Shown here one piece after another: positions 1 to 34,819 of a stretch of 64,000 bases of DNA. Position numbers and translations under genes: made by a program. This DNA comes from Escherichia coli (GTDB taxonomy: Bacteria; Pseudomonadota; Gammaproteobacteria; Enterobacterales; Enterobacteriaceae). The stretch is taken from assembly GCF_048403405.1 (NCBI RefSeq), contig NZ_CP183129.1; one strand, written 5' to 3'. Below the pieces are notes generated by a model. The model ran no database searches. It saw only the letters and a program-made list of their open reading frames with translations, and was not told the origin of the DNA. Numbering within the stretch: the first letter of the stretch is position 1; the number at the start of each line of letters is the position of its first letter.

Positions 1-1556
1 CCTGCGCCCGCGTCGCCATTAACCTTTCCTCGCCGCCGAAGCAAATCTCGGCGCTGACCACTCTGAGCCACCAGCAGGAGGCGGAAATTCGCCAGCTTGA
101 GCGCGAGCTTCGCATCGGGCTGCGTACCAACACCTCACGGATGACCGAGGTGCTGGTGCAGTACGATGAAACGCTGACGGCGCTGGATGAACTGGAAGCG
201 GCCTGGCATCAGCAGCAGGCGCTGGTCCGGGAGATTATCGCGCTGCGCCAGCAGTTGCTGGGCGTGGCAGAAGACGATGCGGCGTCGTTGCCGGACGCAG
301 ATGCCGCGGAGGATACGCCGCCAGAGTCAGAGTCAGAGTCAGAGTCAGAGTCAGAGTCAGAGTCAGAGTCAGAACAGGATAATACCGGTGCCGTACCGGC
401 TGATGAGGCCGACAGAGAACAGCCGGAAGAGACCGCTGAAACAGTTTCCCCGGTACAGCGGCTGGCCCAGCTCACTGCCGAACTGGACGCCCTGCATAAC
501 GACCGGTTGCTGGTCTCCCCGCACGTCGATAAAAAACAGATTGCGGCGGTGATTGCCGAATGGACCGGCGTGCCGCTCAACCGCCTGTCGCAGAATGAAA
601 TGTCGGTCATCACCGACCTGCCGAAATTGCTGGGCGACACCATCAAAGGCCAAGACCTGGCGATTGCCAGCCTGCATAAGCATCTACTGACCGCACGCGC
701 CGACCTGCGTCTTCCGGGACGCCCGCTCGGTGCGTTCCTGCTGGCTGGCCCCAGCGGTGTGGGTAAAACCGAAACCGTCCTGCAACTGGCAGAGCTGCTC
801 TACGGCGGTCGCCAGTACCTGACCACCATCAATATGTCCGAATTCCAGGAGAAACACACCGTCTCGCGGCTGATTGGTTCGCCTCCGGGCTACGTTGGCT
901 ACGGTGAAGGCGGCGTACTGACCGAAGCGATTCGCCAGAAACCCTACTCGGTAGTACTGCTCGATGAAGTGGAAAAAGCGCACCCGGATGTGCTCAACCT
1001 GTTCTACCAGTCGTTCGATAAGGGCGAAATGGCAGACGGTGAAGGCCGCCTGATTGACTGCAAAAATATCGTCTTCTTCCTGACGTCCAACCTCGGCTAC
1101 CAGGTAATAGTCGAGCACGCCGATGACCCGGAAACCATGCAGGAAGAACTGTATCCGGTGCTGGCCGACTTCTTCAAACCTGCCCTGCTGGCGCGTATGG
1201 AAGTGGTGCCGTATCTGCCGCTGTCGAAAGAGACGCTCGCCACCATTATCGCCGGAAAACTGGCCCGTCTGGATAACGTGCTGCGCAGTCGCTTTGGTGC
1301 AGAAGTGGTCATTGAACCGGAAGTGACGGACGAAATCATGAGCCGCGTCACCCGCGCGGAAAACGGCGCGAGGATGCTGGAATCGGTCATCGATGGCGAC
1401 ATGCTACCGCCGCTCTCGCTGCTGCTGTTGCAGAAAATGGCGGCTAACACGGCGATTGCCCGGATTCGGTTGTCGGCGGTGGACGACGCATTTACGGCAG
1501 ACGTGGAAGATGCTCAGAACGACGAGTCCGTCACAAAGGATGAAACGGTTTTATGA
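1..1556 (+). CDS. clpV: T6SS AAA+ ATPase ClpV/TssH, C-terminal ~518 codons (5' end lies outside the window)
   Basis: Reading frame is open from position 3 to the TGA at 1554-1556. Translation carries the second AAA+ module (Walker A LLAGPSGVGKTE, Walker B VVLLDEVEKAHPDV) and a Clp-type C-terminal domain. Confidence 0.85.
   Translation, partial: CARVAINLSSPPKQISALTTLSHQQEAEIRQLERELRIGLRTNTSRMTEVLVQYDETLTALDELEAAWHQQQALVREIIALRQQLLGVAEDDAASLPDADAAEDTPPESESESESESESESESEQDNTGAVPADEADREQPEETAETVSPVQRLAQLTAELDALHNDRLLVSPHVDKKQIAAVIAEWTGVPLNRLSQNEMSVITDLPKLLGDTIKGQDLAIASLHKHLLTARADLRLPGRPLGAFLLAGPSGVGKTETVLQLAELLYGGRQYLTTINMSEFQEKHTVSRLIGSPPGYVGYGEGGVLTEAIRQKPYSVVLLDEVEKAHPDVLNLFYQSFDKGEMADGEGRLIDCKNIVFFLTSNLGYQVIVEHADDPETMQEELYPVLADFFKPALLARMEVVPYLPLSKETLATIIAGKLARLDNVLRSRFGAEVVIEPEVTDEIMSRVTRAENGARMLESVIDGDMLPPLSLLLLQKMAANTAIARIRLSAVDDAFTADVEDAQNDESVTKDETVL
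324..371 (+). repeat. Perfect hexanucleotide tandem repeat (GAGTCA)x8 inside clpV, encoding (Glu-Ser)8
   Basis: Eight identical GAGTCA units read directly from the sequence, in frame with clpV and followed by GAA CAG. Confidence 0.95.
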
Positions 1557-2296
1557 GCAGGTTGCGCGTTTTCCGGCAGACAGGATGGTTTATCGCGGGC
1601 CTGATGACGGGCTTACCCGCCACTGCCGCGCCCGCAGAAACATCGTCAATGGCCGGTGTGGCGGTCGCCGTCGCCACCACGACCCCGCCGGATGCGACAG
1701 CCACGTCACAGGCCATGCAGTCCTGTCGGCGGGAGTCCGCGGCGCTGGAGCGGCTTGACTGCTATGACCGCCTGCTGGCACCGCTGTCCCCGTCAGGGTT
1801 TGACGGGGCGCTGGTCAAAGCCGGTTTTGTGGGCGAGGCCTGGACCCGCGCCACAGAGCAGGAAAAACGTCGCGAGGGCAACACCACAGAACTGCTGGTG
1901 ACGCAGGTGCCGGGGGAGCGCCCGACGGTGGTGATAACCACCCCGGCTATCGGCCATGTTCCGCCGCGCCCGGTGCTGATGTTCAGTTGCGTGGACAATA
2001 TCACCCGGATGCAGGTGGCGCTGATGCACCCTCTGGATGTCCATGATATCGCCGTCACTCTGAATGCCGACAGCCGGGCATTGCGTAGCCACTGGTTTGT
2101 GCGCGAGAACGGCACCCTGCTGGAGTCCAGCCGGGGGCTGTCCGGGATTGATGAAATTAAGCAACTGTTCGGCGCAAAAACGCTGACAGTGGATACCGGC
2201 GCAGATAACGCCGCAGGAAAGCTGACCTTTAACATTGACGGGCTGGCAAGGGCGATTGCCCCCCTGCGCGTTGCCTGCCACTGGGCGGGAGAATAA
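1553..2296 (+). CDS. T6SS-associated VasI-family protein (secreted/periplasmic, N-terminal signal peptide)
   Basis: ATG at 1553 overlaps the clpV stop (ATGA). N-terminal hydrophobic signal-like segment, then an Ala/Thr/Pro-rich tract. Position between clpV and tssA matches vasI in vas-type clusters. Family assignment is from recalled architecture, not a search. Confidence 0.55.
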   Translation: MSRLRVFRQTGWFIAGLMTGLPATAAPAETSSMAGVAVAVATTTPPDATATSQAMQSCRRESAALERLDCYDRLLAPLSPSGFDGALVKAGFVGEAWTRATEQEKRREGNTTELLVTQVPGERPTVVITTPAIGHVPPRPVLMFSCVDNITRMQVALMHPLDVHDIAVTLNADSRALRSHWFVRENGTLLESSRGLSGIDEIKQLFGAKTLTVDTGADNAAGKLTFNIDGLARAIAPLRVACHWAGE

Positions 2297-2300
2297 AAAT

Positions 2301-3713
2301 ATGGCAATGGACTTACGCGATCCGAATGTCTGGATAACGCACCTGCTGGAAAACCTGCCGGAAGAAAAACTGGCATCGGCGCTGAAAGATGACAACCCGG
2401 ACTGGGAGTATATCGACGGCGAAATCGTCAAACTGGGATCTCTGGCCCACAGTCAACTGGATATCCCGGAACTCCAGCGCCGGGGGCTGGTCATTCTGGC
2501 TTCGGAGAGTAAGGACTTTCGTCTGCTGGCGCATCTGCTGAGAACCCTGCAACACGCCGGTGATCCTCATCTCGCATTGCGCCTGCTGGCGCTGTATGTG
2601 GAGCATTACTGGTCGGTGGCTGCGCCGCAGAATATGGCACATAAAAAACGCTTTGCCAGCCAGGTCATTAAACGCTTCGAAACAGGTATTGAAGGCTTTT
2701 CACAGAACGCCGCCACAGCGCAGCGCGACGCGCTGTCAGGGGAACTGGCGAAACTGGCGCAGTGCTGGCAGTCACATAACGCCCCGGAACTGGCACTGGC
2801 TACCGATGATCTTTTTGCCCTGTACCAGCGTGCGTTTAATCGTGCGGCACCGGCTCCTGCCCCCACTCCGGCGGCCTCCGATAGTTCACGACAGACCACC
2901 GCCACGTCTGAAAGCGGCGTGACGCAACCCAGTGCTCCGGCTCCCCAAATCGCCATCGACAGTCACGACGACAAAGCCTGGCGCGACACGCTGTTAAAAG
3001 TGGCGGCTATTTTATGTGAACGCCAGCCGGACTCGCCGCAGGGCTATCGCCTGCGCCGCCATGCCCTGTGGCAATCCATCACCAGTACACCCCAGGCGGA
3101 AAGCGATGGACGTACCCCATTGGCTGCGGTCTCTGCCGATATGGTGGCGGATTACCAGTCCCGGCTTGCCAGCGCGGATATGGCGCTGTGGCAGCAGGTT
3201 GAGAAAAGCGTATTGCTGGCTCCTTACTGGCTGGACGGTCACTGTCTTTCTGCACAGACGGCACTGCGTCTGGGTTACAAACAGGTGGCAGACACCATCC
3301 GCGATGAGGTCATCCGCTTCCTTGAGCGTCTGCCCCAGCTTACCGGGCTGCTGTTTAATGACCGCACACCGTTTCTCAGTGAGCAGACGAAACAATGGCT
3401 GGCAGCTTCGCCCGACGGCAAAGTTGCACCGGTTGCGCAAATCGGTGAGGAATCGCAGGCAGCCAGAGCCTGTTTTGCTGGGCAGGGTCTGGAGGCGGCG
3501 CTGCGATATCTGGACATGCTACCCGAAGGCGATCCCCGCAATCAGTTTCACCGCCAGTACCTTGCCGCACAGTTGACGGAGGAGGCGGGGCTGATACAGC
3601 TTGCGCAGCAACAGTACCGGATGTTGTTGATGATAGGGAGTCAGATGATGGTGTCTGACTGGGAGCCATCATTACTTACGCAGCTTGAACAAAAATTCAC
3701 GGCAGAACAATAA
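2301..3713 (+). CDS. tssA: T6SS protein TssA (VasJ-like, ImpA_N-type N-terminal domain)
   Basis: ATG at 2301 just after the vasI-like stop (the tracked ORF starts further upstream at 2235). About 470 aa, lying between vasI and tssM as vasJ does. Confidence 0.7.
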   Translation: MAMDLRDPNVWITHLLENLPEEKLASALKDDNPDWEYIDGEIVKLGSLAHSQLDIPELQRRGLVILASESKDFRLLAHLLRTLQHAGDPHLALRLLALYVEHYWSVAAPQNMAHKKRFASQVIKRFETGIEGFSQNAATAQRDALSGELAKLAQCWQSHNAPELALATDDLFALYQRAFNRAAPAPAPTPAASDSSRQTTATSESGVTQPSAPAPQIAIDSHDDKAWRDTLLKVAAILCERQPDSPQGYRLRRHALWQSITSTPQAESDGRTPLAAVSADMVADYQSRLASADMALWQQVEKSVLLAPYWLDGHCLSAQTALRLGYKQVADTIRDEVIRFLERLPQLTGLLFNDRTPFLSEQTKQWLAASPDGKVAPVAQIGEESQAARACFAGQGLEAALRYLDMLPEGDPRNQFHRQYLAAQLTEEAGLIQLAQQQYRMLLMIGSQMMVSDWEPSLLTQLEQKFTAEQ

Positions 3714-3731
3714 AAGAGAACAGGAGTTTTT

Positions 3732-6700
3732 GTGTTCAGATTACCAACACCCCGACTACTCAGCGGACTCAAATCAGCCCTACGCCCGGCGATGCCCCGG
3801 TTTAAAGTCTCCGCTTTCTGGCTGCTGATACTGGCGTGGATTTTTCTGCTGGTATGGATCTGGTGGAAAGGCCCGACGTGGACGCTGTATGAAGAACAGT
3901 GGCTCAAACCACTGGCGAACCGCTGGCTGGCAACGGCGGCATGGGGGATTATCGCCCTAGTGTGGCTTACCGTCCGGATGATGAAGCGCCTGCAACAGCT
4001 TGAAAAAATGCAAAAGCAGCAGCGCGAGGAGGCCATTGATCCGCTCAGTGTGGAGCTGAACGCCCAGCAGCGTTACCTTGACCGCTGGCTGCTGCGCCTG
4101 CAACGCCATCTCGACAACCGCCGTTTCCTGTGGCAGTTGCCGTGGTATATGGTCATCGGCCCGGCGGGCAGTGGCAAAACGACACTGCTGCGCGAGGGTT
4201 TTCCGTCCGACATTATTTATGCCCCGGAGGGCGCACGCGGCGCAGAACAACGCCTGTACCTCACGCCCCATGTCGGTAAACAGGCGGTGATCTTTGATAT
4301 CGACGGCACACTCTGCGCTCCCGCTGATGCGGATATCCTGCATCGCCGTCTGTGGGAACATGCCCTCGGCTGGCTGAAAGAAAAGCGCGCGCGCCAGCCG
4401 CTGAACGGGATTATTCTGACACTCGATTTACCCGATCTGCTTACCGCAGACAAACGCCGCCGCGAACATCTGTTACAGACGCTGCGCAGCCGCTTGCAGG
4501 ATATACGCCAGCATCTTCACTGCCAGTTACCGGTTTACGTGGTACTCACCCGGCTTGATTTATTGCAGGGTTTTGCCGCCCTGTTCCAGTCACTGAACAG
4601 ACAGGATCGCGATGCAATTCTAGGGGTCACGTTCACCCGCCGCGCCCATGAAAATGATGACTGGCGAACAGAGTTGAATGCTTTCTGGCAGACATGGGTG
4701 GATCGAATGAACCTAGCGTTGCCGGATCTGATGGTCGCTCAGACTCACACCCGCGCGTCTTTATTTAGTTTTTCCCGCCAGATGCAGGGAAGCCGTGAAC
4801 CACTGGTGTCACTGCTTGAGGGTCTGCTTGACGGCGAAAATATGAACGTGATGCTGCGTGGCGTCTATCTCACCTCTTCGCTTCAGCGCGGACAGATGGA
4901 TGATATTTTCACCCAGTCTGCCGCCCGCCAATACCGGCTGGGCAATAACCCACTGGCGTCCTGGCCTCTGGTGGACACCGCACCCTATTTCACCCGTAGC
5001 CTGTTCCCGCAGGCATTACTCGCAGAGCCTAATCTGGCAACAGAAAGCCGCACCTGGCTGATGCGTTCCCGTCGCCGCCTGACGGTTTTCTCTACCACAG
5101 GAGGCGTGGCGGCACTGCTGCTCATCACCGGCTGGCATCACTATTACAACGGTAACTATCAGTCCGGCATCACCGTGCTTAAGCAGGCAAAAGCCTTTAT
5201 GGATGTACCGCCTCCGCTGGGGGAAGATGATTACGGCAACCTGCAACTGCCGCTGCTGAACCCGGTACGCGATGCCACGCTGGCCTATGGCGACTGGGGC
5301 GACCGCAGCCGTCTGGCCGATATGGGACTGTACCAGGGACGGCGTATCGGGCCTTATGTGGAACAAACCTATCTGCAACTGCTGGAGCAGCGTTACCTGC
5401 CTTCGCTGTTTAACGGGCTGGTCAAAGCGATGAACGCCGCGCCGCCGGAGAGTGAGGAAAAACTCGCCGTGCTGCGTGTGATGCGAATGCTGGAGGACAA
5501 AAGCGGACGCAATAATGAGGTGGTGAAGCAGTATATGGCAAAACGCTGGAGCGAAAAATTCCACGGCCAGCGCGATATCCAGGCACAACTGATGTCCCAT
5601 CTTGACTACGCGCTGGCTCATACTGACTGGCATGCAGAGCGTCAGGCGGGCGACGGTGATGCCATCAGCCGCTGGACGCCATATGACAAGCCTGTTGCGA
5701 CAGCACAGAAAGAACTGAGCAAACTGCCTGTCTACCAGCGAGTTTACCAGAGCCTGAAAACGCGGGCGCTGGGCGTTCTTCCTGCCGACCTCAATCTGCG
5801 TGACCAGGTAGGGCCAACTTTTGACCAGGTATTTACATCTGCCGATGATAACAAACTGGTTGTTCCACAGTTTCTTACCCGTTACGGCCTGCAAAGCTAT
5901 TTTGTAAAACAGCGCGATGAACTGGTTGAACTGACGGCGATGGATTCCTGGGTACTCAACCTCACCCGCAGCGTGAAATACAGTGACGCCGACCGCGCGG
6001 AAATCCAGCGCCAGTTGACCGAGCAGTATATCAGCGACTACACCGCCACCTGGCGGGCCGGGATGGACAATCTGAATATCCGCAATTTTGAGTCCATCGG
6101 ACAACTGACCGGGGCGCTGGAGCAGGTTATCAGCGGCGACCAGCCTTTGCAGCGGGCGCTGACCGTGCTGCGTGACAACACACAGCCAGGCGTCTTTTCT
6201 GAAAAACTCTCTGCCAAAGAGCGGGATGAGACCCTGGCAGAGCCGGATTACCAGTTACTCACCCGCCTCGGGCATGAATTCGCCCCGGAAAACAGTACCC
6301 TGACAGTACAGAAAGACAAAGAAAGCACGATGCAGGCCGTATACCAGCAGCTCACCGAGTTACACCGCTACCTGCTGGCAATCCAGAACGCGCCTGTACC
6401 AGGGAAATCGGCGCTGAAAGCCGTGCAGTTAAGGCTTGATCAGAACAGCAGCGATCCAATATTCGCCACCCGCCAGATGGCAAAAACACTGCCTGCTCCG
6501 CTCAACCGCTGGGTAGGCAGGCTGGCTGACCAGGCCTGGCATGTGGTGATGGTGGAAGCCGTTCACTATATGGAAGTGGACTGGCGCGACAGCGTGGTGA
6601 AACCGTTTAACGAGCAACTGGCAAATAACTATCCGTTTAATCCACATTCTGCACAGGATGCCTCACTGGATGCCTTCGAACGATTCTTTAAACCAGATGG

Positions 6701-7256
6701 CATACTGGATACCTTCTACCAGCAGAACCTAAAGCTGTTTATCGACAATGACCTGAGTCTGGAGGATGGCGATAACAACGTCATTATTCGCGAAGATATT
6801 ATTGCGCAACTGGAAACCGCGCAGAAAATCCGTGACATATTCTTCAGCAAACAGAACGGTCTGGGAACATCCTTTGCCGTGGAAACGGTATCGCTTTCCG
6901 GCAACAAACGCCGCAGCGTACTGAACCTTGACGGTCAGTTAGTCGATTACAGCCAGGGCCGTAACTATACCGCCCATCTGGTCTGGCCTAACAATATGCG
7001 CGAAGGCAACGAAAGCAAACTGACGCTGGTTGGTGCCCGCGGCGGCGCACCGCGCAGTATCAGCTTCAGCGGGCCGTGGGCTCAGTTCCGCCTGTTCGGG
7101 GCCGGACAGCTGACCGGAGTACAGGATGGCAACTTTACCGTGCGCTTTAGTGTGGACGGTGGCGCAATGACCTACCGCGTGCATACCGACACGGAAGATA
7201 ACCCGTTCAGCGGTGGGTTATTCAGCCAGTTTGGCCTGTCAGACACACTGTACTGA
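3732..7256 (+). CDS. tssM: T6SS membrane-complex protein TssM (IcmF/VasK family)
   Basis: GTG start at 3732 preceded by AGGAG at 3722-3726. 1174 aa with N-terminal transmembrane segments and a Walker A motif (GPAGSGKTT). Confidence 0.9.
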   Translation: MFRLPTPRLLSGLKSALRPAMPRFKVSAFWLLILAWIFLLVWIWWKGPTWTLYEEQWLKPLANRWLATAAWGIIALVWLTVRMMKRLQQLEKMQKQQREEAIDPLSVELNAQQRYLDRWLLRLQRHLDNRRFLWQLPWYMVIGPAGSGKTTLLREGFPSDIIYAPEGARGAEQRLYLTPHVGKQAVIFDIDGTLCAPADADILHRRLWEHALGWLKEKRARQPLNGIILTLDLPDLLTADKRRREHLLQTLRSRLQDIRQHLHCQLPVYVVLTRLDLLQGFAALFQSLNRQDRDAILGVTFTRRAHENDDWRTELNAFWQTWVDRMNLALPDLMVAQTHTRASLFSFSRQMQGSREPLVSLLEGLLDGENMNVMLRGVYLTSSLQRGQMDDIFTQSAARQYRLGNNPLASWPLVDTAPYFTRSLFPQALLAEPNLATESRTWLMRSRRRLTVFSTTGGVAALLLITGWHHYYNGNYQSGITVLKQAKAFMDVPPPLGEDDYGNLQLPLLNPVRDATLAYGDWGDRSRLADMGLYQGRRIGPYVEQTYLQLLEQRYLPSLFNGLVKAMNAAPPESEEKLAVLRVMRMLEDKSGRNNEVVKQYMAKRWSEKFHGQRDIQAQLMSHLDYALAHTDWHAERQAGDGDAISRWTPYDKPVATAQKELSKLPVYQRVYQSLKTRALGVLPADLNLRDQVGPTFDQVFTSADDNKLVVPQFLTRYGLQSYFVKQRDELVELTAMDSWVLNLTRSVKYSDADRAEIQRQLTEQYISDYTATWRAGMDNLNIRNFESIGQLTGALEQVISGDQPLQRALTVLRDNTQPGVFSEKLSAKERDETLAEPDYQLLTRLGHEFAPENSTLTVQKDKESTMQAVYQQLTELHRYLLAIQNAPVPGKSALKAVQLRLDQNSSDPIFATRQMAKTLPAPLNRWVGRLADQAWHVVMVEAVHYMEVDWRDSVVKPFNEQLANNYPFNPHSAQDASLDAFERFFKPDGILDTFYQQNLKLFIDNDLSLEDGDNNVIIREDIIAQLETAQKIRDIFFSKQNGLGTSFAVETVSLSGNKRRSVLNLDGQLVDYSQGRNYTAHLVWPNNMREGNESKLTLVGARGGAPRSISFSGPWAQFRLFGAGQLTGVQDGNFTVRFSVDGGAMTYRVHTDTEDNPFSGGLFSQFGLSDTLY

Positions 7257-7266
7257 GGAGGCAGGG

Positions 7267-8619
7267 ATGAATAGTAACGGACTGACACAAACTATCGTTA
7301 CCGGCAGTGACCCGCGCGGGCTGCCGGAATTCAGCGCCATCCGCGAGGAAATAAACAAAGCCAGCCATCCGTCACAGCCTGAGCTGAACTGGAAACTGGT
7401 GGAGTCGCTGGCGCTGGCGATTTTTAAAGCCAACGGTGTGGATTTACACACCGCCACCTACTATACGCTTGCCCGGACACGGACACAGGGACTGGCGGGA
7501 TTCTGCGAAGGTGCGGAACTGCTGGCGGCAATGGTAAGCCACGACTGGGATAAATTCTGGCCGCAGGGCGGTCCGGCGCGTACTGAAATGCTGGACTGGT
7601 TTAACTCCCGAACCGGCAATATTCTGCGTCAGCAAATCTCCTTTGCGGAACCCGATCTGCCACTGATCTACCGCACAGAGCGGGCATTGCAGCTTATCTG
7701 CGACAAGCTTCAGCAGGTGGAGCTGAAGCGCGTTCCGCGCGTGGAGAATCTGCTCTATTTTATGCAGAACACGCGTAAGCGGCTTGAACCCCAGCCGAAG
7801 AGTAACGTTGAAAACGCCGTACAGACCACGGTTAGAACACTGATTTATGCCCCGGAAACAACGGCTTCCTCCACGCCAGAAGCGGTAGTGCCTCCCCTGC
7901 CCGACCTGCCTGAGATGAAAGTAGAAGTGCGCAGTCTGTCAGAGAATCCCCCACAGGCCAGTGTGATGAAGCAAGGCAGTACGGTAAGAGGGTTTATCAC
8001 GGGGATCGCCTGTTCAGTGGCTGTCGCCTCAGCATTGTGGTGGTGGCAGGTCTATCCGGTGCAACAGCAACTGTTACAGGTTAACGACACCGCGCAGGGC
8101 GCAGCAACGGTGTGGATGGCCTCACCTGAACTAGAAAACTATGAGCGCAGGCTACAACAGCTTCTTGGCGTCTCCCCGGTACAACCGCTGGAAACCGGGA
8201 TGCAGATGATGCGTGTTGCCGACAGTCGCTGGCCGGAAAGCCTGCAGCAGCAGCAGGCCTCGACACATTGGAATGAAGCACTCAAAACCCGCGCACAGAG
8301 TAGCCCGCAGTTGCGTGGCTGGTTGCAGACCCGTCAGGACTTACATGCTTTTGCAGATCTCGTGATGCGGCGCGAGAAAGAGGGACTAACCCTTTCCTAT
8401 ATCAAAAATGTCATCTGGCAGGCGGAGCGGGGACTGGGGCAGGAAACACCCGTTGAGTCTCTGTTGACGCAGTACCAGGATGCCCGTGCGCAGAAGCAGA
8501 ATATAGATGCGCTGGAAAAACAAATTAATGAGCGACTCGAAGGCGTGTTAATCCGCTGGCTGCTGCTGAAGAATAACGTCATGCCAGAGGCGGCAACCGG
8601 GACCACGGCCGAAAAATAA
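7267..8619 (+). CDS. VasL-like T6SS accessory protein (ImpA_N-related N-terminus, one central transmembrane helix)
   Basis: ATG at 7267 after GAGGAGG, 10 bp after the tssM stop. Predicted TM segment ITGIACSVAVASALWWW. Position after tssM corresponds to vasL. Confidence 0.6.
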   Translation: MNSNGLTQTIVTGSDPRGLPEFSAIREEINKASHPSQPELNWKLVESLALAIFKANGVDLHTATYYTLARTRTQGLAGFCEGAELLAAMVSHDWDKFWPQGGPARTEMLDWFNSRTGNILRQQISFAEPDLPLIYRTERALQLICDKLQQVELKRVPRVENLLYFMQNTRKRLEPQPKSNVENAVQTTVRTLIYAPETTASSTPEAVVPPLPDLPEMKVEVRSLSENPPQASVMKQGSTVRGFITGIACSVAVASALWWWQVYPVQQQLLQVNDTAQGAATVWMASPELENYERRLQQLLGVSPVQPLETGMQMMRVADSRWPESLQQQQASTHWNEALKTRAQSSPQLRGWLQTRQDLHAFADLVMRREKEGLTLSYIKNVIWQAERGLGQETPVESLLTQYQDARAQKQNIDALEKQINERLEGVLIRWLLLKNNVMPEAATGTTAEK

Positions 8620-8642
8620 TTATTTAATTAAAGGAGATTATC

Positions 8643-9125
8643 ATGGCAAATATGAGTTATTTATCTTTGAGTGGAGAGACACAAGGGCTGATTTCAGCAG
8701 GTTGCTCAACGCTTGATTCTGTCGGAAACAAAGCACAGCCAGAACATAAAGATCAGATCATGGTTTATGCGTTAATGCATTCCATCTCAAGAAGTCAAAA
8801 TGTCAATCATCATGAATTAATTATCACCAAACCGGTTGATAAATCCTCACCATTGCTGGCAAAAGCACTTAGTGACAATGAAAAAATGGTAACATGTGAA
8901 TTTATACTCTACCGAACCAGTAAAGCGGGTATTTACCAGCCTTATTATAAAATAAACCTGTCAAAAGCCCGAATATCAAGTATTGATTTTGTCACACCGC
9001 ATGCTGTCCTGGAAAAAGAACTGGAGCCACAGGAGAGAATTGCCTTTATTTATGAAGATATTTCCTGGGAGCATACGTTAGCCGGTACGAATGCAATGAG
9101 TAAATGGCAGGATCGTGTACAGTAA
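8643..9125 (+). CDS. hcp: Hcp-family T6SS tube protein (divergent, encoded in AT-rich DNA)
   Basis: 160 aa, AAGGAG RBS at 8631-8636. Length and motif pattern (SSPLL-KA, Y-I-L-A-I, IAF-YE-ISW) resemble Hcp. Confidence 0.75.
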   Translation: MANMSYLSLSGETQGLISAGCSTLDSVGNKAQPEHKDQIMVYALMHSISRSQNVNHHELIITKPVDKSSPLLAKALSDNEKMVTCEFILYRTSKAGIYQPYYKINLSKARISSIDFVTPHAVLEKELEPQERIAFIYEDISWEHTLAGTNAMSKWQDRVQ

Positions 9126-9168
9126 TTTACTGTAATAACATAATAAATTACTATTGCGGAGAGATATA

Positions 9169-10083
9169 ATGGCTGGTTTAAGGAATAATAACAACACACA
9201 GAATGCACAGTGGGCTGATTATGTGGGTGACATTCTTCGGGGGGCTCAACCGATAAACCAGCTAGTACCTCAGCACCCTTATCTTAACGACGTCCCACTC
9301 ATTGATGAATTAAGGCGTCAGAACACTCATCATGTTATTCTCTTGACACTTGATGTTGCAAAAAAAATACTCAGCTCAATAACATCATTTGATTACATTC
9401 ATTTTATCACTACACATCCTTCAGGTATAAAAGATACACTCGCTTGGTTAGTTAACGCGGGTAAATTAATGACTGAGTTTGATGGAAATGGGAAAATTAT
9501 ATTTAACTTTAATACCTTAAAGTATACAAAAGCAAGTTACTTTGAAATACTTGGAGAGAAATATATAAAAATTACAACATCCAGCCCCTGGCTTTTAGAA
9601 AAGCTCGGTAAATATATTTTCTCTTCACGAGCGCCTCAAGTTCTGGAACTCGCTATTGGCTGGCGAGGAGCTTTATCTGAATCAATAAAAGGAGTTAAGT
9701 TCTGTATCTGGTTTTCAGTAGCCTGGAGAACCATAGAATTTATTATGAGTTCAGAGCGAGATCTGGTTAATTTTCTTGGTGATTTTTCAATGGATGTGGC
9801 CAAAGCAGTGATTGCAGGCGGTGTTGCAACTGCTATTGGAAGCCTGGCTTCTTTTGCCTGTCTTAGTTTTGGCCTTCCAGTAATTCTTGTAGGAGGAGCA
9901 ATTTTACTTACAGGGATAGTGTGTACAGTTGTTTTAAATGAAATCGATGCTCAATACCATTTATCAGAAAAATTAAAAGATGCAATTAGAGATGGACTAA
10001 AACGGCAACAGGAACTTGATAAATGGAAAAGGGAAAACATGACTCCATTTATGTATGTTCTTAACACTTCCCCCGTGATATGA
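9169..10083 (+). CDS. Hypothetical protein; candidate Hcp-linked T6SS effector with C-terminal glycine-zipper hydrophobic helices
   Basis: ATG at 9169 with GGAG 7 nt upstream (tracked ORF begins at a TTG at 9154). AT-rich codon usage matching hcp. C-terminal segment VAKAVIAGGVATAIGSLASFACLSFGLPVILVGGAILLTGIVCTVVL. Function is inferred from context only. Confidence 0.55.
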   Translation: MAGLRNNNNTQNAQWADYVGDILRGAQPINQLVPQHPYLNDVPLIDELRRQNTHHVILLTLDVAKKILSSITSFDYIHFITTHPSGIKDTLAWLVNAGKLMTEFDGNGKIIFNFNTLKYTKASYFEILGEKYIKITTSSPWLLEKLGKYIFSSRAPQVLELAIGWRGALSESIKGVKFCIWFSVAWRTIEFIMSSERDLVNFLGDFSMDVAKAVIAGGVATAIGSLASFACLSFGLPVILVGGAILLTGIVCTVVLNEIDAQYHLSEKLKDAIRDGLKRQQELDKWKRENMTPFMYVLNTSPVI

Positions 10084-10247
10084 GGATTAACTATGCGTTT
10101 ACATGTTAAATTGAAAGAGTTTTTTTCGATGTTTTTTATAGCCATATTATTTTTCCCTGCATTCAATGCTTCTTTATTTTTTACCGGAATTAGGTGATGC
10201 TGCCAACTTACTGATTTAGTGTATGATGGTGTTTTTGAGGTGCTCCA

Positions 10248-10523
10248 GTGGCTTCTGTTTCTATCAGCTGTCCCTCCTGTTCAGCTACTGACGGGGTGGT
10301 GCGTAACGGCAAAAGCACCGCCGGACATCAGCGCTATCTCTGCTCTCACTGCCGTAAAACATGGCAACTGCAGTTCACTTACACCGCTTCTCAACCCGGT
10401 ACGCACCAGAAAATCATTGATATGGCCATGAATGGCGTTGGATGCCGGGCAACCGCCCGCATTATGGGCGTTGGCCTCAACACGATTTTCCGCCATTTAA
10501 AAAACTCAGGCCGCAGTCGGTAA
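10248..10523 (+). CDS. insA: IS1 InsA (transposition inhibitor / N-terminal part of transposase)
   Basis: 91-aa ORF beginning [43 protein letters not shown], inside IS1. Confidence 0.9.
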
Positions 10524-10945
10524 CCTCGCGCATACAGCCGGGCAGTGACGTCATCGTCTGCGCGGAAATGGACGAACAGTGGGGATACGTCGGGGCTAAA
10601 TCGCGCCAGCGCTGGCTGTTTTACGCGTATGACAGGCTCCGGAAGACGGTTGTTGCGCACGTATTCGGTGAACGCACTCTGGCCACACTGGAGCGTCTTC
10701 TAAGCCTGCTGTCGGCCTTTGAGGTCGTGGTATGGATGACGGATGGCTGGCCGCTGTATGAATCCCGCCTGAAGGGAAAGCTGCACGTAATCAGCAAGCG
10801 TTACACTCAGCGAATTGAGCGGCATAACCTGAATCTGAGACAACATCTGGCAAGGCTGGGACGGAAGTCACTGTCGTTCTCAAAATCGGTGGAGCTGCAT
10901 GACAAGGTCATCGGGCATTATCTGAACATAAAACACTATCAGTAA
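10442..10945 (+). CDS. insB: IS1 InsB reading frame (expressed as InsAB' transposase by -1 frameshifting)
   Basis: -1 frame ORF overlapping the end of insA, translation typical of IS1 InsB ([21 protein letters not shown]...). Confidence 0.88.
10496..10505 (+). promoter_or_regulatory. IS1 programmed -1 ribosomal frameshift site TTTAAAAAAC
   Basis: A6C motif lies in the insA/insB overlap; the IS1 frameshift mechanism is established knowledge. Confidence 0.8.
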
Positions 10946-11484
10946 GTTGGAGTCATTACCCGGAATTAAACCTCTATATTCAATAATAAAAGGCTCCACG
11001 GAAATATTTTATGATTGGAGAATGTTGATTCTATGCTTCGGTTTCATATCGTTTTCCTTGTTAAATATTCATGTAATTTTACTAACAATAATAAAATCAT
11101 TCTTAATAAAAAAAACAAAGGTAATCAATTTCGCCACAGACATAACAATACAGCTAACTCTTATATTTTTACTAATAGCTATCGTAATAGCACCTTTAAT
11201 AGCTCCTTTTGTCACAGGATATGTCAATGCTAATTGTCACCCCTGCGGTAATAACACGGGGATTTTCCCAGGAGCAATCTATATTAAAAATGGCATAAAA
11301 TGTAATAATGAACATATTTCTCGCAAGGAAGATTAAGCAGTTAAATAATTAAATATTCTAAAACAAACAGTTTTTAACGCCGGATTCCATGTCCTTTCTT
11401 GCACTGTCTTTGTCAGGAACAATTTCTTATGCAAAGAATTTTGTATTATTGCCGCCAGAAATTCCTGGCGGCAGATATAATTTA

Positions 11485-13601: not shown

Positions 13602-14069
13602 ATGCTTAAACAGGTAGAAATTTTCACCGATGGTTCGTGTCTGGGTAATCCAGGACCTGGGGGTTACGGCGCTATTTTACGCTATCGCGGACGCGAGAAA
13701 ACCTTTAGCGCAGGCTACACCCGCACCACCAACAACCGTATGGAGTTGATGGCCGCTATTGTCGCGCTGGAGGCGTTAAAAGAACATTGCGAAGTCATTT
13801 TGAGTACCGACAGCCAGTATGTCCGCCAGGGTATCACCCAGTGGATCCATAACTGGAAAAAACGTGGCTGGAAAACCGCAGACAAAAAACCAGTAAAAAA
13901 TGTCGATCTCTGGCAACGTCTTGATGCTGCGCTGGGGCAGCATCAAATCAAATGGGAATGGGTTAAAGGCCATGCCGGTCATCCAGAAAACGAACGTTGC
14001 GATGAACTGGCTCGTGCCGCAGCGATGAATCCCACACTGGAAGATACGGGCTATCAAGTCGAAGTTTAA
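13602..14069 (+). CDS. rnhA: Ribonuclease HI
   Basis: Translation [23 protein letters not shown]...TGYQVEV, 155 aa; divergent from dnaQ. Confidence 0.97.
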
Positions 14070-14791
14070 GCCTGTGGTTTACGACATTGCCGGGTGGCTC
14101 CAACCGCCTGGCGAATTCGTGGCTTGTTTTTACTCTGTTTCATCGGATTTAGCGTTAAAGGAATAGTCCGTTTCCGGGCGACAATAAGTTGTAAGCAACC
14201 AAGCGCAGGAATATGCGCATTCAATAGTTTTCCACCGTGTTTGTTCCACGGGAGAACGTGGAAACGGCTGGCGTGTAGCACTTCAAAATTCAACAAAGAG
14301 AGCCAGTCCAGCTGCCGCATCAGAGTAAACATCCGGCTATTATAGGGCGAGGTTTTGCGCAATACCGGCACAAGTTTTCGTAATCCCATTAAACTGATGG
14401 GATTGAAGCCACTAATCACCAGCCAGCCATCATCAATCAATACCCGATCGGCTTCACGCAATAAACGATGCGGATCGGTGCACCATGGCAATGTATGTGC
14501 CAGTAGACAAACATCAACGGATTTATCGGCAAAAGGAAGATGAAGTGGGTCCGCCTGCACCTGGACGGGCAGTCCTTGCGCAGAAACATTCACTTGATGA
14601 GAAACCGCGCACGCTTCGCAATTGATTTCTGCGCTTAAATTGCCAATCTTAAGCAGATGAAAACCATACATTTTAGTGAACCACGGGTTGAGCTGGCGCT
14701 CCAGCGCCTTGCGATAAAGCTCTCCCCAGGGCAAATCGCCCCAGCAATCAGGAGCCACGACAGTTTGAGGGACTCTTGCCGGTTTCATCAC
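14066..14791 (-). CDS. yafS: SAM-dependent methyltransferase YafS
   Basis: ~240-aa ORF at the position of yafS; first codon may be one Met downstream. Confidence 0.8.
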
Positions 14792-18943: not shown

Positions 18944-19858
18944 ATGAAAGCCACGTCGGAAGAACTCGCCATTTTTGTTTCGGTCGTCGAAAGCGGCAGC
19001 TTTAGCCGGGCAGCGGAACAATTAGGGCAAGCAAACTCAGCGGTAAGCCGGGCGGTGAAAAAGCTGGAGATGAAACTTGGCGTTAGCCTGCTTAATCGGA
19101 CCACGCGACAACTTAGCCTGACGGAAGAAGGCGAGCGTTATTTTCGTCGCGTACAGTCAATTTTGCAGGAGATGGCAGCGGCAGAATCAGAAATTATGGA
19201 GACGCGTAATACACCGCGTGGACTGTTACGGATCGATGCCGCAACTCCAGTGGTGCTGCACTTTCTGATGCCGTTGATTAAGCCTTTTCGTGAACGCTAT
19301 CCGGAAGTCACTTTATCACTAGTCTCCTCCGAAACGATTATTAATTTGATCGAAAGAAAAGTGGATGTCGCGATACGCGCCGGTACGTTAACGGATTCCA
19401 GCTTACGTGCCAGGCCGTTATTTAACAGTTATCGAAAAATTATAGCCTCCCCCGATTATATTTCCCGCTATGGGAAGCCAGAAACGATCAACGATTTAAA
19501 GCAACATGTTTGCCTGGGATTCACTGAACCCGCTTCCCTCAATACCTGGCCGATAGCCTGTAGCGATGGACAATTACATGAGGTGAAGTACGGTTTGTCA
19601 TCCAATAGTGGGGAAACACTGAAACAGCTTTGCCTGAGTGGCAACGGGATTGCGTGTTTGTCCGACTACATGATCGACAGAGAAATCGCTCGCGGAGAAT
19701 TGGTGGAGTTAATGGCAGATAAAGTGTTGCCAGTGGAAATGCCATTCAGTGCAGTCTATTACAGCGACCGTGCGGTAAGTACGCGCATCCGGGCTTTTAT
19801 CGATTTCCTTAGCGAGCATGTAAAAACAGCTCCCGGAGGAGCTGTCAGAGAGGCTTAA
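18944..19858 (+). CDS. yafC: LysR-family transcriptional regulator YafC
   Basis: 304 aa with N-terminal helix-turn-helix ([23 protein letters not shown]). Confidence 0.88.
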
Positions 19859-20658
19859 TCCCATTCAGGAGCCAGACCTTCCGGGCTAACCAGGCGGTCG
19901 TTGCAATCCAGTGCGGCGATCGCTTTTTTATCTTCGGCATCAAGCTGTAAATTTTGTGCCTTAAGATTACTCTCCAGGTTTTCACGTTTAGTAGAAGAAG
20001 GAATTACGGAGCAACCTTCCCCCATAGCCCACGCCAGAATCACTTGAGCCGGAGTCGCATTGTGTTTAGTTGCGATACGAGCAATAACCTCATCTTTCAG
20101 GGCCTTCCCATAAGCCAGCGTCATATAGGAAGTAATATGGATGCCGTGCTGTTTAGCCCAAGCGACCACTTTACGGTTTTGCAGATAAGGAGAGAGTTCA
20201 ATCTGGTTAGTAGCGATGTTTTCAGCGCCAACAGCAGCAATCGCTTTTTCCATCAATGGGATCGTGAAGTTGGAAATACCGATCTCACGCGTCAGCCCTT
20301 GTTTTTTCGCTTCCAGCAGCGCCTGCATAAACTCTTCAACAGAGACTTCATCGTTTGGTGACGGCCAGTGGATTAGCGTCAGATCTACATAATCGGTACG
20401 CAATTTTTGCAGGCTTTCTTTCAGGCTTGGGATCAATTTAGCTTTGTTGAGATTTTCAATCCAGATTTTAGTGGTGATGTAGAGTTCATGACGCGGCACG
20501 CCACTTTCTGCAATCGCCTGACCTACTGCGGCTTCGTTATCATAGATTTGTGCGGTATCAATTGCGCGATAACCAAGTTCTAGCGCCGTTTTCACAGATG
20601 AAATAACAACGTCGTCTTTCAGACGGAAAGTACCTAAACCAAATGCAGGGATAGCCAT
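19855..20658 (-). CDS. dkgB: 2,5-diketo-D-gluconate reductase B (aldo-keto reductase)
   Basis: 267 aa aldo-keto reductase fold; stop codon overlaps the yafC stop. Confidence 0.9.
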
Positions 20659-20780: not shown

Positions 20781-20808
20781 AAAAAAAACCTCGAGCGTTA
20801 ACTCGAGG
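20781..20808 (-). terminator. Rho-independent terminator at the end of the rrnH operon
   Basis: Hairpin CCTCGAGCGTTAACTCGAGG followed on the minus strand by T8. Confidence 0.7.
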
Positions 20809-20820
20809 CTTCTTAATAAG

Positions 20821-20897
20821 TGGCGGAACGGACGGGACTCGAACCCGCGACCCCCTGCGTGACAGGCAGGTATTCTAACCGACTGAACTACCGCTCC
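20821..20897 (-). tRNA. aspU: tRNA-Asp (GTC), distal tRNA of rrnH
   Basis: Same sequence as aspV, located just downstream of the 5S gene. Confidence 0.97.
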
Positions 20898-20949: not shown

Positions 20950-21069
20950 ATGCCTGGCAGTTCCCTACTCTCGCATGGGGAGACCCCACACTACCATCGG
21001 CGCTACGGCGTTTCACTTCTGAGTTCGGCATGGGGTCAGGTGGGACCACCGCGCTAAGGCCGCCAGGCA
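20950..21069 (-). rRNA. rrfH: 5S ribosomal RNA
   Basis: Reverse complement matches E. coli 5S rRNA (TGCCTGGCGGCC...GGGAACTGCCAGGCAT). Confidence 0.95.
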
Positions 21070-34396: not shown

Positions 34397-34819
34397 TTAT
34401 TCCCGACCGCTGCGCACTTTGCCGCGCATCGCCTTCACGCTTGATTTTTGTGCTTTCGATGCCAGCCTGCGCTCTTTTGATGCGCGGGTGGGCCGCGTGG
34501 GTCGTCGGGCTTTTTGTTCTGTTGTTAAATCTTTAATCACTGCCACCAGCCGGGCCAGCGCCGCTTCGCGGTTGAGCTCCTGATTGCGGTATTCCTGTGC
34601 CTTAATGACAATCACGCCATCACTGCTGATCAAATGATGGCTGGCGGCGAGCAGACGCTCTTTGTAATACTCTGGCAGGCTGGACGCCCGAATGTCAAAA
34701 CGCAGATGAATAGCCGTTGAGGTCTTATTAACATGCTGCCCGCCCGCGCCCTGCGCACGAATGGCGGTGATCTCAAGCTCACCATCGGGGATAGCAACAT
34801 GTCGGGAAATCACAATCAT
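34397..34819 (-). CDS. arfB: Peptidyl-tRNA hydrolase ArfB (YaeJ), ribosome rescue factor
   Basis: 140 aa with GGQ motif ([10 protein letters not shown]) and basic C-terminal tail. Confidence 0.93.

Follow-up and report, generated by a model that had tools for sequence, protein, structure and literature searches.

A 4-base tail-to-tail overlap of yafC and dkgB in Escherichia coli and the dkgB terminator hairpin inside yafC

The yafC/dkgB locus

The genes yafC and dkgB converge in the stretch of Escherichia coli DNA analysed here (64,000 nucleotides of contig NZ_CP183129.1, hereafter the window), and their coding sequences overlap by 4 bases, two of which are common to both stop codons (Table 1). 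The junction reads ...gag gct TAA tcc cat..., with t19855, t19856, a19857 and a19858: the stop TAA of yafC occupies 19856-19858, and that of dkgB is the reverse complement of 19855-19857. Both products match Pfam families above the curated cut-offs, HTH_1 and LysR_substrate for YafC and Aldo_ket_red for DkgB. The LysR_substrate match stops at residue 293 of YafC, and residues 294-304 (19823-19855) form a non-conserved tail. The C-terminus of DkgB is kept across genera, down to the last residue. YafC is a DNA-binding factor validated by ChIP-exo, with no defined role (PMC6237786).

Table 1. Features at the yafC/dkgB junction, in coordinates of the window.
Feature	Position	Strand	Description	Source
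yafC coding sequence	18944-19858	+	304 aa, LysR-type regulator	ORF list, Pfam, RefSeq
dkgB coding sequence	19855-20658	-	267 aa, aldo-keto reductase	ORF list, Pfam, RefSeq
TTAA common to both stops	19855-19858			Sequence, ORFs, RefSeq annotation
dkgB intrinsic terminator	19846-19822	-	Stem 19846-19838/19833-19825, loop UCCG 19837-19834, U-run 19826-19822	Folding, conservation
In vivo dkgB mRNA 3' terminus	19816-19824, dominant 19819	-		PMC10687069 (published table, reads not re-analysed)
Candidate yafC terminator	19892-19934	+	14-bp stem 19892-19905/19912-19925, loop 19906-19911, T-run 19924-19929 then ATCTT	

The same 4-base overlap is present in the RefSeq annotation of K-12 (dkgB at 229167-229970, yafC at 229967-230881) and in that of the closest strain, TUM14771, whose 1.8-kb yafC/dkgB region is 100% identical to the window. 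This region was found in 5,424 of 5,426 complete E. coli genomes, where it is annotated as yafC and dkgB throughout, and the 131 nt of the junction are at least 99% identical in 4,722 of 5,418 genomes. The window does not differ from K-12 at any of the 180 nt around the junction, and published K-12 data can thus be applied to it; we converted positions with K-12 coordinate = 249825 - window position.

These data agree exactly with the original prediction of shared stop-codon bases, in coordinates as in gene names, whether one considers the sequence, the ORF list, or the RefSeq annotations of K-12 and TUM14771. That prediction named a true stop lying further upstream in either gene as the finding that would overturn it, and in neither frame does a stop codon precede 19855-19858. 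We therefore reject the idea that the overlap is an annotation artefact in which one of the ORFs truly ends upstream. The variation of the YafC tail between genera past residue 293, outside the Pfam domain, could be read in its favour, but both frames are open up to the shared stops, DkgB is conserved through its final residue, and the ORF ends are identical in six out of six Escherichia species-level genomes, one of them with TTAG instead of TTAA. Such an artefact is barely conceivable.

Comparison with TUM14771 also touched on other parts of the window. The gene arfB (34397-34819, minus strand) carries a RefSeq pseudogene flag ('internal stop') in that strain, and the flag is not borne out by the sequence of the window, where arfB is an intact ORF of 140 aa with the GGQ motif. 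The first part of the window (~1-11300, mapped approximately from the TUM14771 annotation) contains a type VI secretion cluster (tssH, vasI, tssA, tssM, a gene encoding a VasL-domain protein, and Hcp) beside a tRNA-Asp gene, which looks like a strain-variable island.

Frequency of such overlaps

Two convergent stop codons can overlap only on the tetramers TTAA, CTAA, TTAG, and CTAG, which give the distribution of convergent overlap lengths its known peak or step at length 4 (Lillo and Krakauer 2007, PMC2174442). The stops meet on TTAA in the window and on TTAG in one of the other Escherichia genomes (L006). Like the members of this class, yafC and dkgB are two genuine opposite-strand genes with a TTAA in which each reads TAA, and nothing essential sets them apart from it. 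The authors of the same study counted 58 convergent overlaps in E. coli, 21 of which have rho-independent terminators within the coding sequence of the partner. Close to the locus, two of the six convergent pairs in the annotated 50 kb overlap by 4 bases, the other pair being rnhA/yafS. The overlap of yafC and dkgB is thus real, yet not unusual. What this pair adds to the published class is a terminator that predates the overlap and that is read in two frames among genera (see below).

In the rnhA/yafS pair, rnhA (plus strand) and yafS (minus strand) have a TTAA in common at 14066-14069, which is the same kind of overlap. A plus-strand hairpin of -24 kcal/mol with a weak U-rich tail (14080-14121) follows the stop of rnhA within yafS. 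This pair, as yafS-rnhA, is likewise in the published list of excludons discussed below.

The dkgB terminator

When folded in the sense of dkgB, the minus strand forms a hairpin past the dkgB stop, GACAGCUCC-UCCG-GGAGCUGUU, followed by the U-run UUUUU. Its stem of 9 bp has a folding energy of -16.2 kcal/mol (z -4.66), and none of 200 shuffled sequences was as stable. The hairpin begins 8-9 nt after the dkgB stop and falls within codons 294-301 of yafC (K-T-A-P-G-G-A-V); only 0.7% of the synonymous recodings of the yafC tail are as stable. It was identified by folding and by our own scan, which uses different rules from the consensus terminator scan; the latter gave the plus-strand hairpin described further below and not this one. 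A search with Rfam gave no match at the junction at E-values up to 1, its only matches being the 5S rRNA and the tRNA-Asp upstream of dkgB.

Published transcript ends of K-12 coincide with this hairpin. The TRS study (Nat Commun 2023, PMC10687069) reports a 'Primary' 3' terminus of dkgB at K-12 230001-230009, with 230006 as the dominant position; its Supplementary Data 3 and 4 print the same hairpin and give a 3' UTR length of 37 nt, with sparse coverage of dkgB by reads (about 0.1 read starts per nt). Neither dkgB nor yafC occurs among the rows examined from the 3'-end tables of Adams et al. 2021 eLife and of TERMITe 2025. Once placed on the window, the terminus lies 39 nt inside yafC, beyond the region of the shared stop, and the mature RNAs of the two genes overlap by at least 40 nt (19819-19858), or by ~115 nt if the plus-strand terminator works. 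The position of this end could partly reflect exonucleases trimming the RNA back to the hairpin; it shows that some termination, or such trimming, still happens.

By its sequence, its structure, and the published 3' ends, the dkgB hairpin is a canonical intrinsic (Rho-independent) terminator: it has the GC-rich stem, the 4-nt loop, and the U-run; the 3' ends are just past the stem; and compensatory changes conserve the structure (see below). Unlike canonical terminators, it sits inside the coding sequence of a gene on the opposite strand. The original prediction had the two transcripts overlapping at their 3' ends with no terminator between the genes. The overlap is borne out, both by the dkgB end inside yafC and by the presence of the pair among published convergent excludons. 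It is also right that there is no intergenic DNA, but a dkgB terminator with an in vivo 3' end is present in the last codons of yafC. The unterminated transcription that was implied is accordingly not supported for dkgB, given a canonical intrinsic terminator 8-9 nt past its stop and a 'Primary' 3' terminus at this very place.

Other transcript ends are on record around dkgB. The dkgB row in Supplementary Data 4 of PMC10687069 includes two start sites, attributed to Thomason et al. 2015, at K-12 229902 and 229863, i.e., at positions 19923 and 19962 of the window on the minus strand, inside the 3' end of dkgB. RNAs starting there would be ~105-145 nt long, end at the dkgB terminator, and be antisense to the 3' end of yafC; inspection by eye revealed no canonical -35/-10 pair upstream of these starts. 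The same study has an abundant 'Internal' 3' end (count column 1868) at K-12 229171-229184, with dominant position 229177 (~20648 on the minus strand of the window), which falls within the dkgB ORF, only ~10 nt from its start. This end may mark a 5' attenuation site, or stem from read-through or processing of the upstream rrnH-aspU transcript. On the minus strand, directly past the genes of tRNA-Asp (20824-20897) and 5S rRNA (20952-21067), a hairpin at 20785-20812 (-16.5 kcal/mol) resembles a terminator and has a long U-run. It is presumably the terminator of the rrnH operon, located ~125 nt before dkgB begins. The promoter scan found no sigma-70-like promoter for dkgB between this hairpin and the start of the gene.

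Evolution of the junction in Enterobacteriaceae

We searched for YafC in one genome per species and obtained 80 loci, from Escherichia, Citrobacter, Enterobacter, Leclercia, Lelliottia, Klebsiella, Kluyvera, Kosakonia, Trabulsiella, Cedecea, and other genera. The convergent layout of yafC and dkgB is general among these loci, and the distance between the two stops varies. It amounts to -4 in each of the six Escherichia species-level genomes, as in the window, and also, with different sequences, in two Citrobacter sp. genomes (L046 and L047) and in Kluyvera cryocrescens (L070). In most other genomes it ranges from +6 to +40, and in a few from +46 to +124.

The hairpin, of the form ACAGCUCC-NNNN-GGAGCUGU and followed by a U-run, was found in most of the genera compared. 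Among 42 distinct sequences from ~15 genera, eight stem pairs are paired in 99.7% of the cases, a value that none of 500 shuffles reached and that compares with 34-65% in controls slid along the alignment. Three pairs are altered on both sides, including a change of U-A into C-G in five sequences. The peptide encoded by this segment is not constant: the hairpin is translated as K-T-A-P-x-G-A-V in Escherichia, Citrobacter, and Enterobacter, and in another frame as K-Q-L-P-K-E-L-stop in Leclercia, Silvania, Yokenella, and Klebsiella. The loop of the hairpin contains the yafC stop in one genome (L073). In Trabulsiella and Kosakonia, yafC ends earlier and a different hairpin fills the spacer of 33-39 nt. 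Since the hairpin is read in two frames of yafC across genera, it is the RNA structure that is conserved, and not the tail of YafC. The point at which the yafC ORF ends has drifted along the hairpin, and the YafC tail is essentially terminator sequence that is translated.

Relative to Citrobacter, whose YafC is of the same length (304 aa) and whose spacer measures 20-29 nt, the junction of Escherichia is ~24 nt shorter. The distance from the dkgB stop to the hairpin differs likewise, with 8-9 nt in Escherichia versus 26-45 nt in Citrobacter and Enterobacter. Escherichia has lost the stop of yafC itself, so that the A following the TTA of dkgB completes a new TAA. Judging from these sequences, the 4-base overlap is mainly a trait of Escherichia that arose by the loss of ~24 nt, an event for which two alignments of the Escherichia junction to the spacers of Citrobacter and Enterobacter are equally possible.

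Termination of yafC transcripts

Convergent genes may be served by a single hairpin. Bidirectional intrinsic terminators reportedly occur at many convergent pairs of E. coli, as seen by Ju and colleagues with SEnd-seq in 2019. The yafC/dkgB junction resembles them in that the spacer is very short or absent and that a palindromic hairpin sits between the gene ends or within them. Its stem, a perfect inverted repeat, folds equally well on both strands, and Trabulsiella and Kosakonia have one hairpin in the intergenic spacer. On the plus strand, however, the hairpin is followed by CAGAGAGGCUUAAUCCC, which contains no U-run. The U-run is thus one-sided, and the hairpin can serve dkgB but not yafC, for which there is a separate candidate hairpin. 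Furthermore, the hairpin lies within the translated ORF of yafC, where ribosomes would unfold the stem; PMC4824070 describes the repression of terminators situated towards the end of a coding region. We rejected a terminator shared by both genes on account of the missing plus-strand U-run, and regard it as very improbable. In the absence of this U-run, transcription of yafC would continue past the shared stop into antisense dkgB.

A candidate for its end begins 34 nt past the yafC stop, within codons 242-256 of dkgB (Table 1). The terminator scan with folding gave this plus-strand hairpin an energy of -21.1 kcal/mol (z -3.41), followed by UUUUUUAUCUU, and the rules of our own scan gave -19.9 kcal/mol. 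With the latter, the window contains hairpins with a U-rich tail at -19.9 kcal/mol or below at a density of 0.007 per 100 nt of each strand. Synonymous recoding of the dkgB codons speaks only mildly for the site: 1.5% of the recodings equal it, and 26% retain a hairpin at least as stable as -12 kcal/mol. As many recodings keep a hairpin, the conserved peptide accounts for part of its stability. We found no covariation in this stem among 65 sequences, since its pairing (81%) is the same as that of shuffled sequences (164 of 500). Seven of the 14 pairs depart from pairing only by unpaired cells, many substitutions disrupt the stem, and more distant genera no longer have the U-run. Because covariation is lacking, we do not claim 19892-19934 as a proven terminator, and we give about even chances to its ending yafC transcripts.

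The other way in which yafC transcripts might end is by Rho, acting on the untranslated RNA past the stop, or they might run far into antisense dkgB. Untranslated RNA is the usual substrate of Rho, and the RNA past the yafC stop is of this kind. Besides the missing covariation, this possibility is consistent with the 3'-end tables, since no 3' end of yafC was found among the rows examined from Adams et al. 2021 eLife, TERMITe 2025, and PMC10687069. The ratio of C to G is modestly above 1 (1.2-1.6) at +100 to +240, but this signal is weak and non-diagnostic. Against it, the hairpin at 19892-19934 is strong whichever scan is used and precedes six U, and its distance of 34 nt to the stop is favourable; hairpins as good are rare in the window and among the recodings. 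We consider termination by Rho, or extended transcription of antisense dkgB, a serious possibility, with a probability somewhat short of even.

Overlap and regulation

Interference or antisense regulation between yafC and dkgB, which the original prediction raised as something that the overlap could allow, is a possibility. In one such reading, the overlap would be a convergent excludon selected for regulation, in which transcription of one gene represses the other through collisions of RNA polymerases or cleavage of the 3' duplex by RNase III, making the expression of the LysR regulator and of the reductase mutually exclusive. ExcludonFinder places dkgB-yafC in Table 1 of its publication, among 165 convergent excludons of MG1655 whose transcripts overlap in 50% or more of 58 RNA-seq samples (Sanmartin et al., NAR 2025, PMC12288877). 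Terminators are predicted inside the transcription unit of the neighbour in 146 of these 165, and the dkgB terminator is in this respect like most of them. The conservation of the convergent layout and of the embedded terminator across Enterobacteriaceae, together with the near-identity of the junction within E. coli, also speaks for selection.

Yet the list is built on coverage overlap only, which pairs with overlapping coding sequences show almost automatically, and being listed is therefore no demonstration of regulation. In comparison with convergent excludons in general, the reciprocal repression or RNase III processing that defines them remains putative for dkgB-yafC: a literature search for pair-specific data on expression anticorrelation, double-stranded RNA, or RNase III found none, nor did we find a published link between YafC and dkgB. 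Moreover, the RNA duplex possibly spans only 40 nt, dkgB is covered by few reads, and the 4-base overlap is specific to the lineage, its relatives managing without it. We thus regard an overlap selected for regulation as unlikely.

Discussion

We are quite confident that the overlap of yafC and dkgB is an ordinary 4-base tail-to-tail overlap that results from the loss of spacer in the Escherichia lineage, and that the conserved element at this place is the Rho-independent terminator of dkgB and not the TTAA. RNA polymerase on the minus strand would pass the dkgB stop, form the hairpin 8-9 nt further on, and release the RNA around 19819. This would leave a 3' UTR of about 36 nt, all of it complementary to the yafC message over its last 12 codons. 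Because the ORF of yafC crosses the DNA of the hairpin, residues 294-304 of YafC would then essentially be a translated terminator appended to the LysR domain. The overlap, the hairpins, the published dkgB 3' end, the conservation and covariation of the dkgB hairpin, and the lineage-specific loss of spacer are direct observations; the end point of yafC transcripts and any regulatory consequence are inferred. Transcription of yafC would probably end at the candidate hairpin in dkgB, otherwise by Rho or further downstream.

The loss of spacer may have had a cost for termination. In a reporter system described in PMC4824070, with tR2 placed 8 to 59 bp from a stop codon, the terminator lost almost all activity when near the stop, through repression by the terminating ribosome, and its efficiency was maximal beyond about 30 nt. 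Since tR2 is repressed at a distance such as the 8-9 nt of dkgB, the efficiency of the dkgB terminator in vivo may, by analogy, be low. One could imagine from this a translation-gated antisense switch, specific to Escherichia, between the reductase and the adjoining LysR regulator. The dkgB stop having been brought 8-9 nt from the hairpin, the terminating ribosome would cover the 5' arm of the stem, and termination would depend on how closely translation of dkgB is coupled to its transcription. If dkgB mRNA were well translated, its transcription would extend into antisense yafC and reduce the expression of yafC; uncoupled transcripts would stop at 19819. Such a switch is a long shot by our own estimate.

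Much of this was already known: the overlap is in the reference annotation, its class has been in the literature since 2007, the excludon list includes the pair, and the 3' end of dkgB has been mapped. The finding has little importance beyond the yafC/dkgB locus. It does illustrate that the absence of intergenic space is not the absence of a terminator, because the latter can persist in the reading frame of the neighbour, whose C-terminal tail can be mere translated terminator. There are practical consequences for the study of these genes. Tagging the C-terminus of yafC or deleting the gene, as in strains for ChIP-exo and in knockout strains, alters the stop or the terminator of dkgB, and deleting dkgB takes away the likely, if still candidate, terminator of yafC. 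Since such changes in one gene affect the end of the other, the phenotype of either mutant may involve the neighbouring gene.
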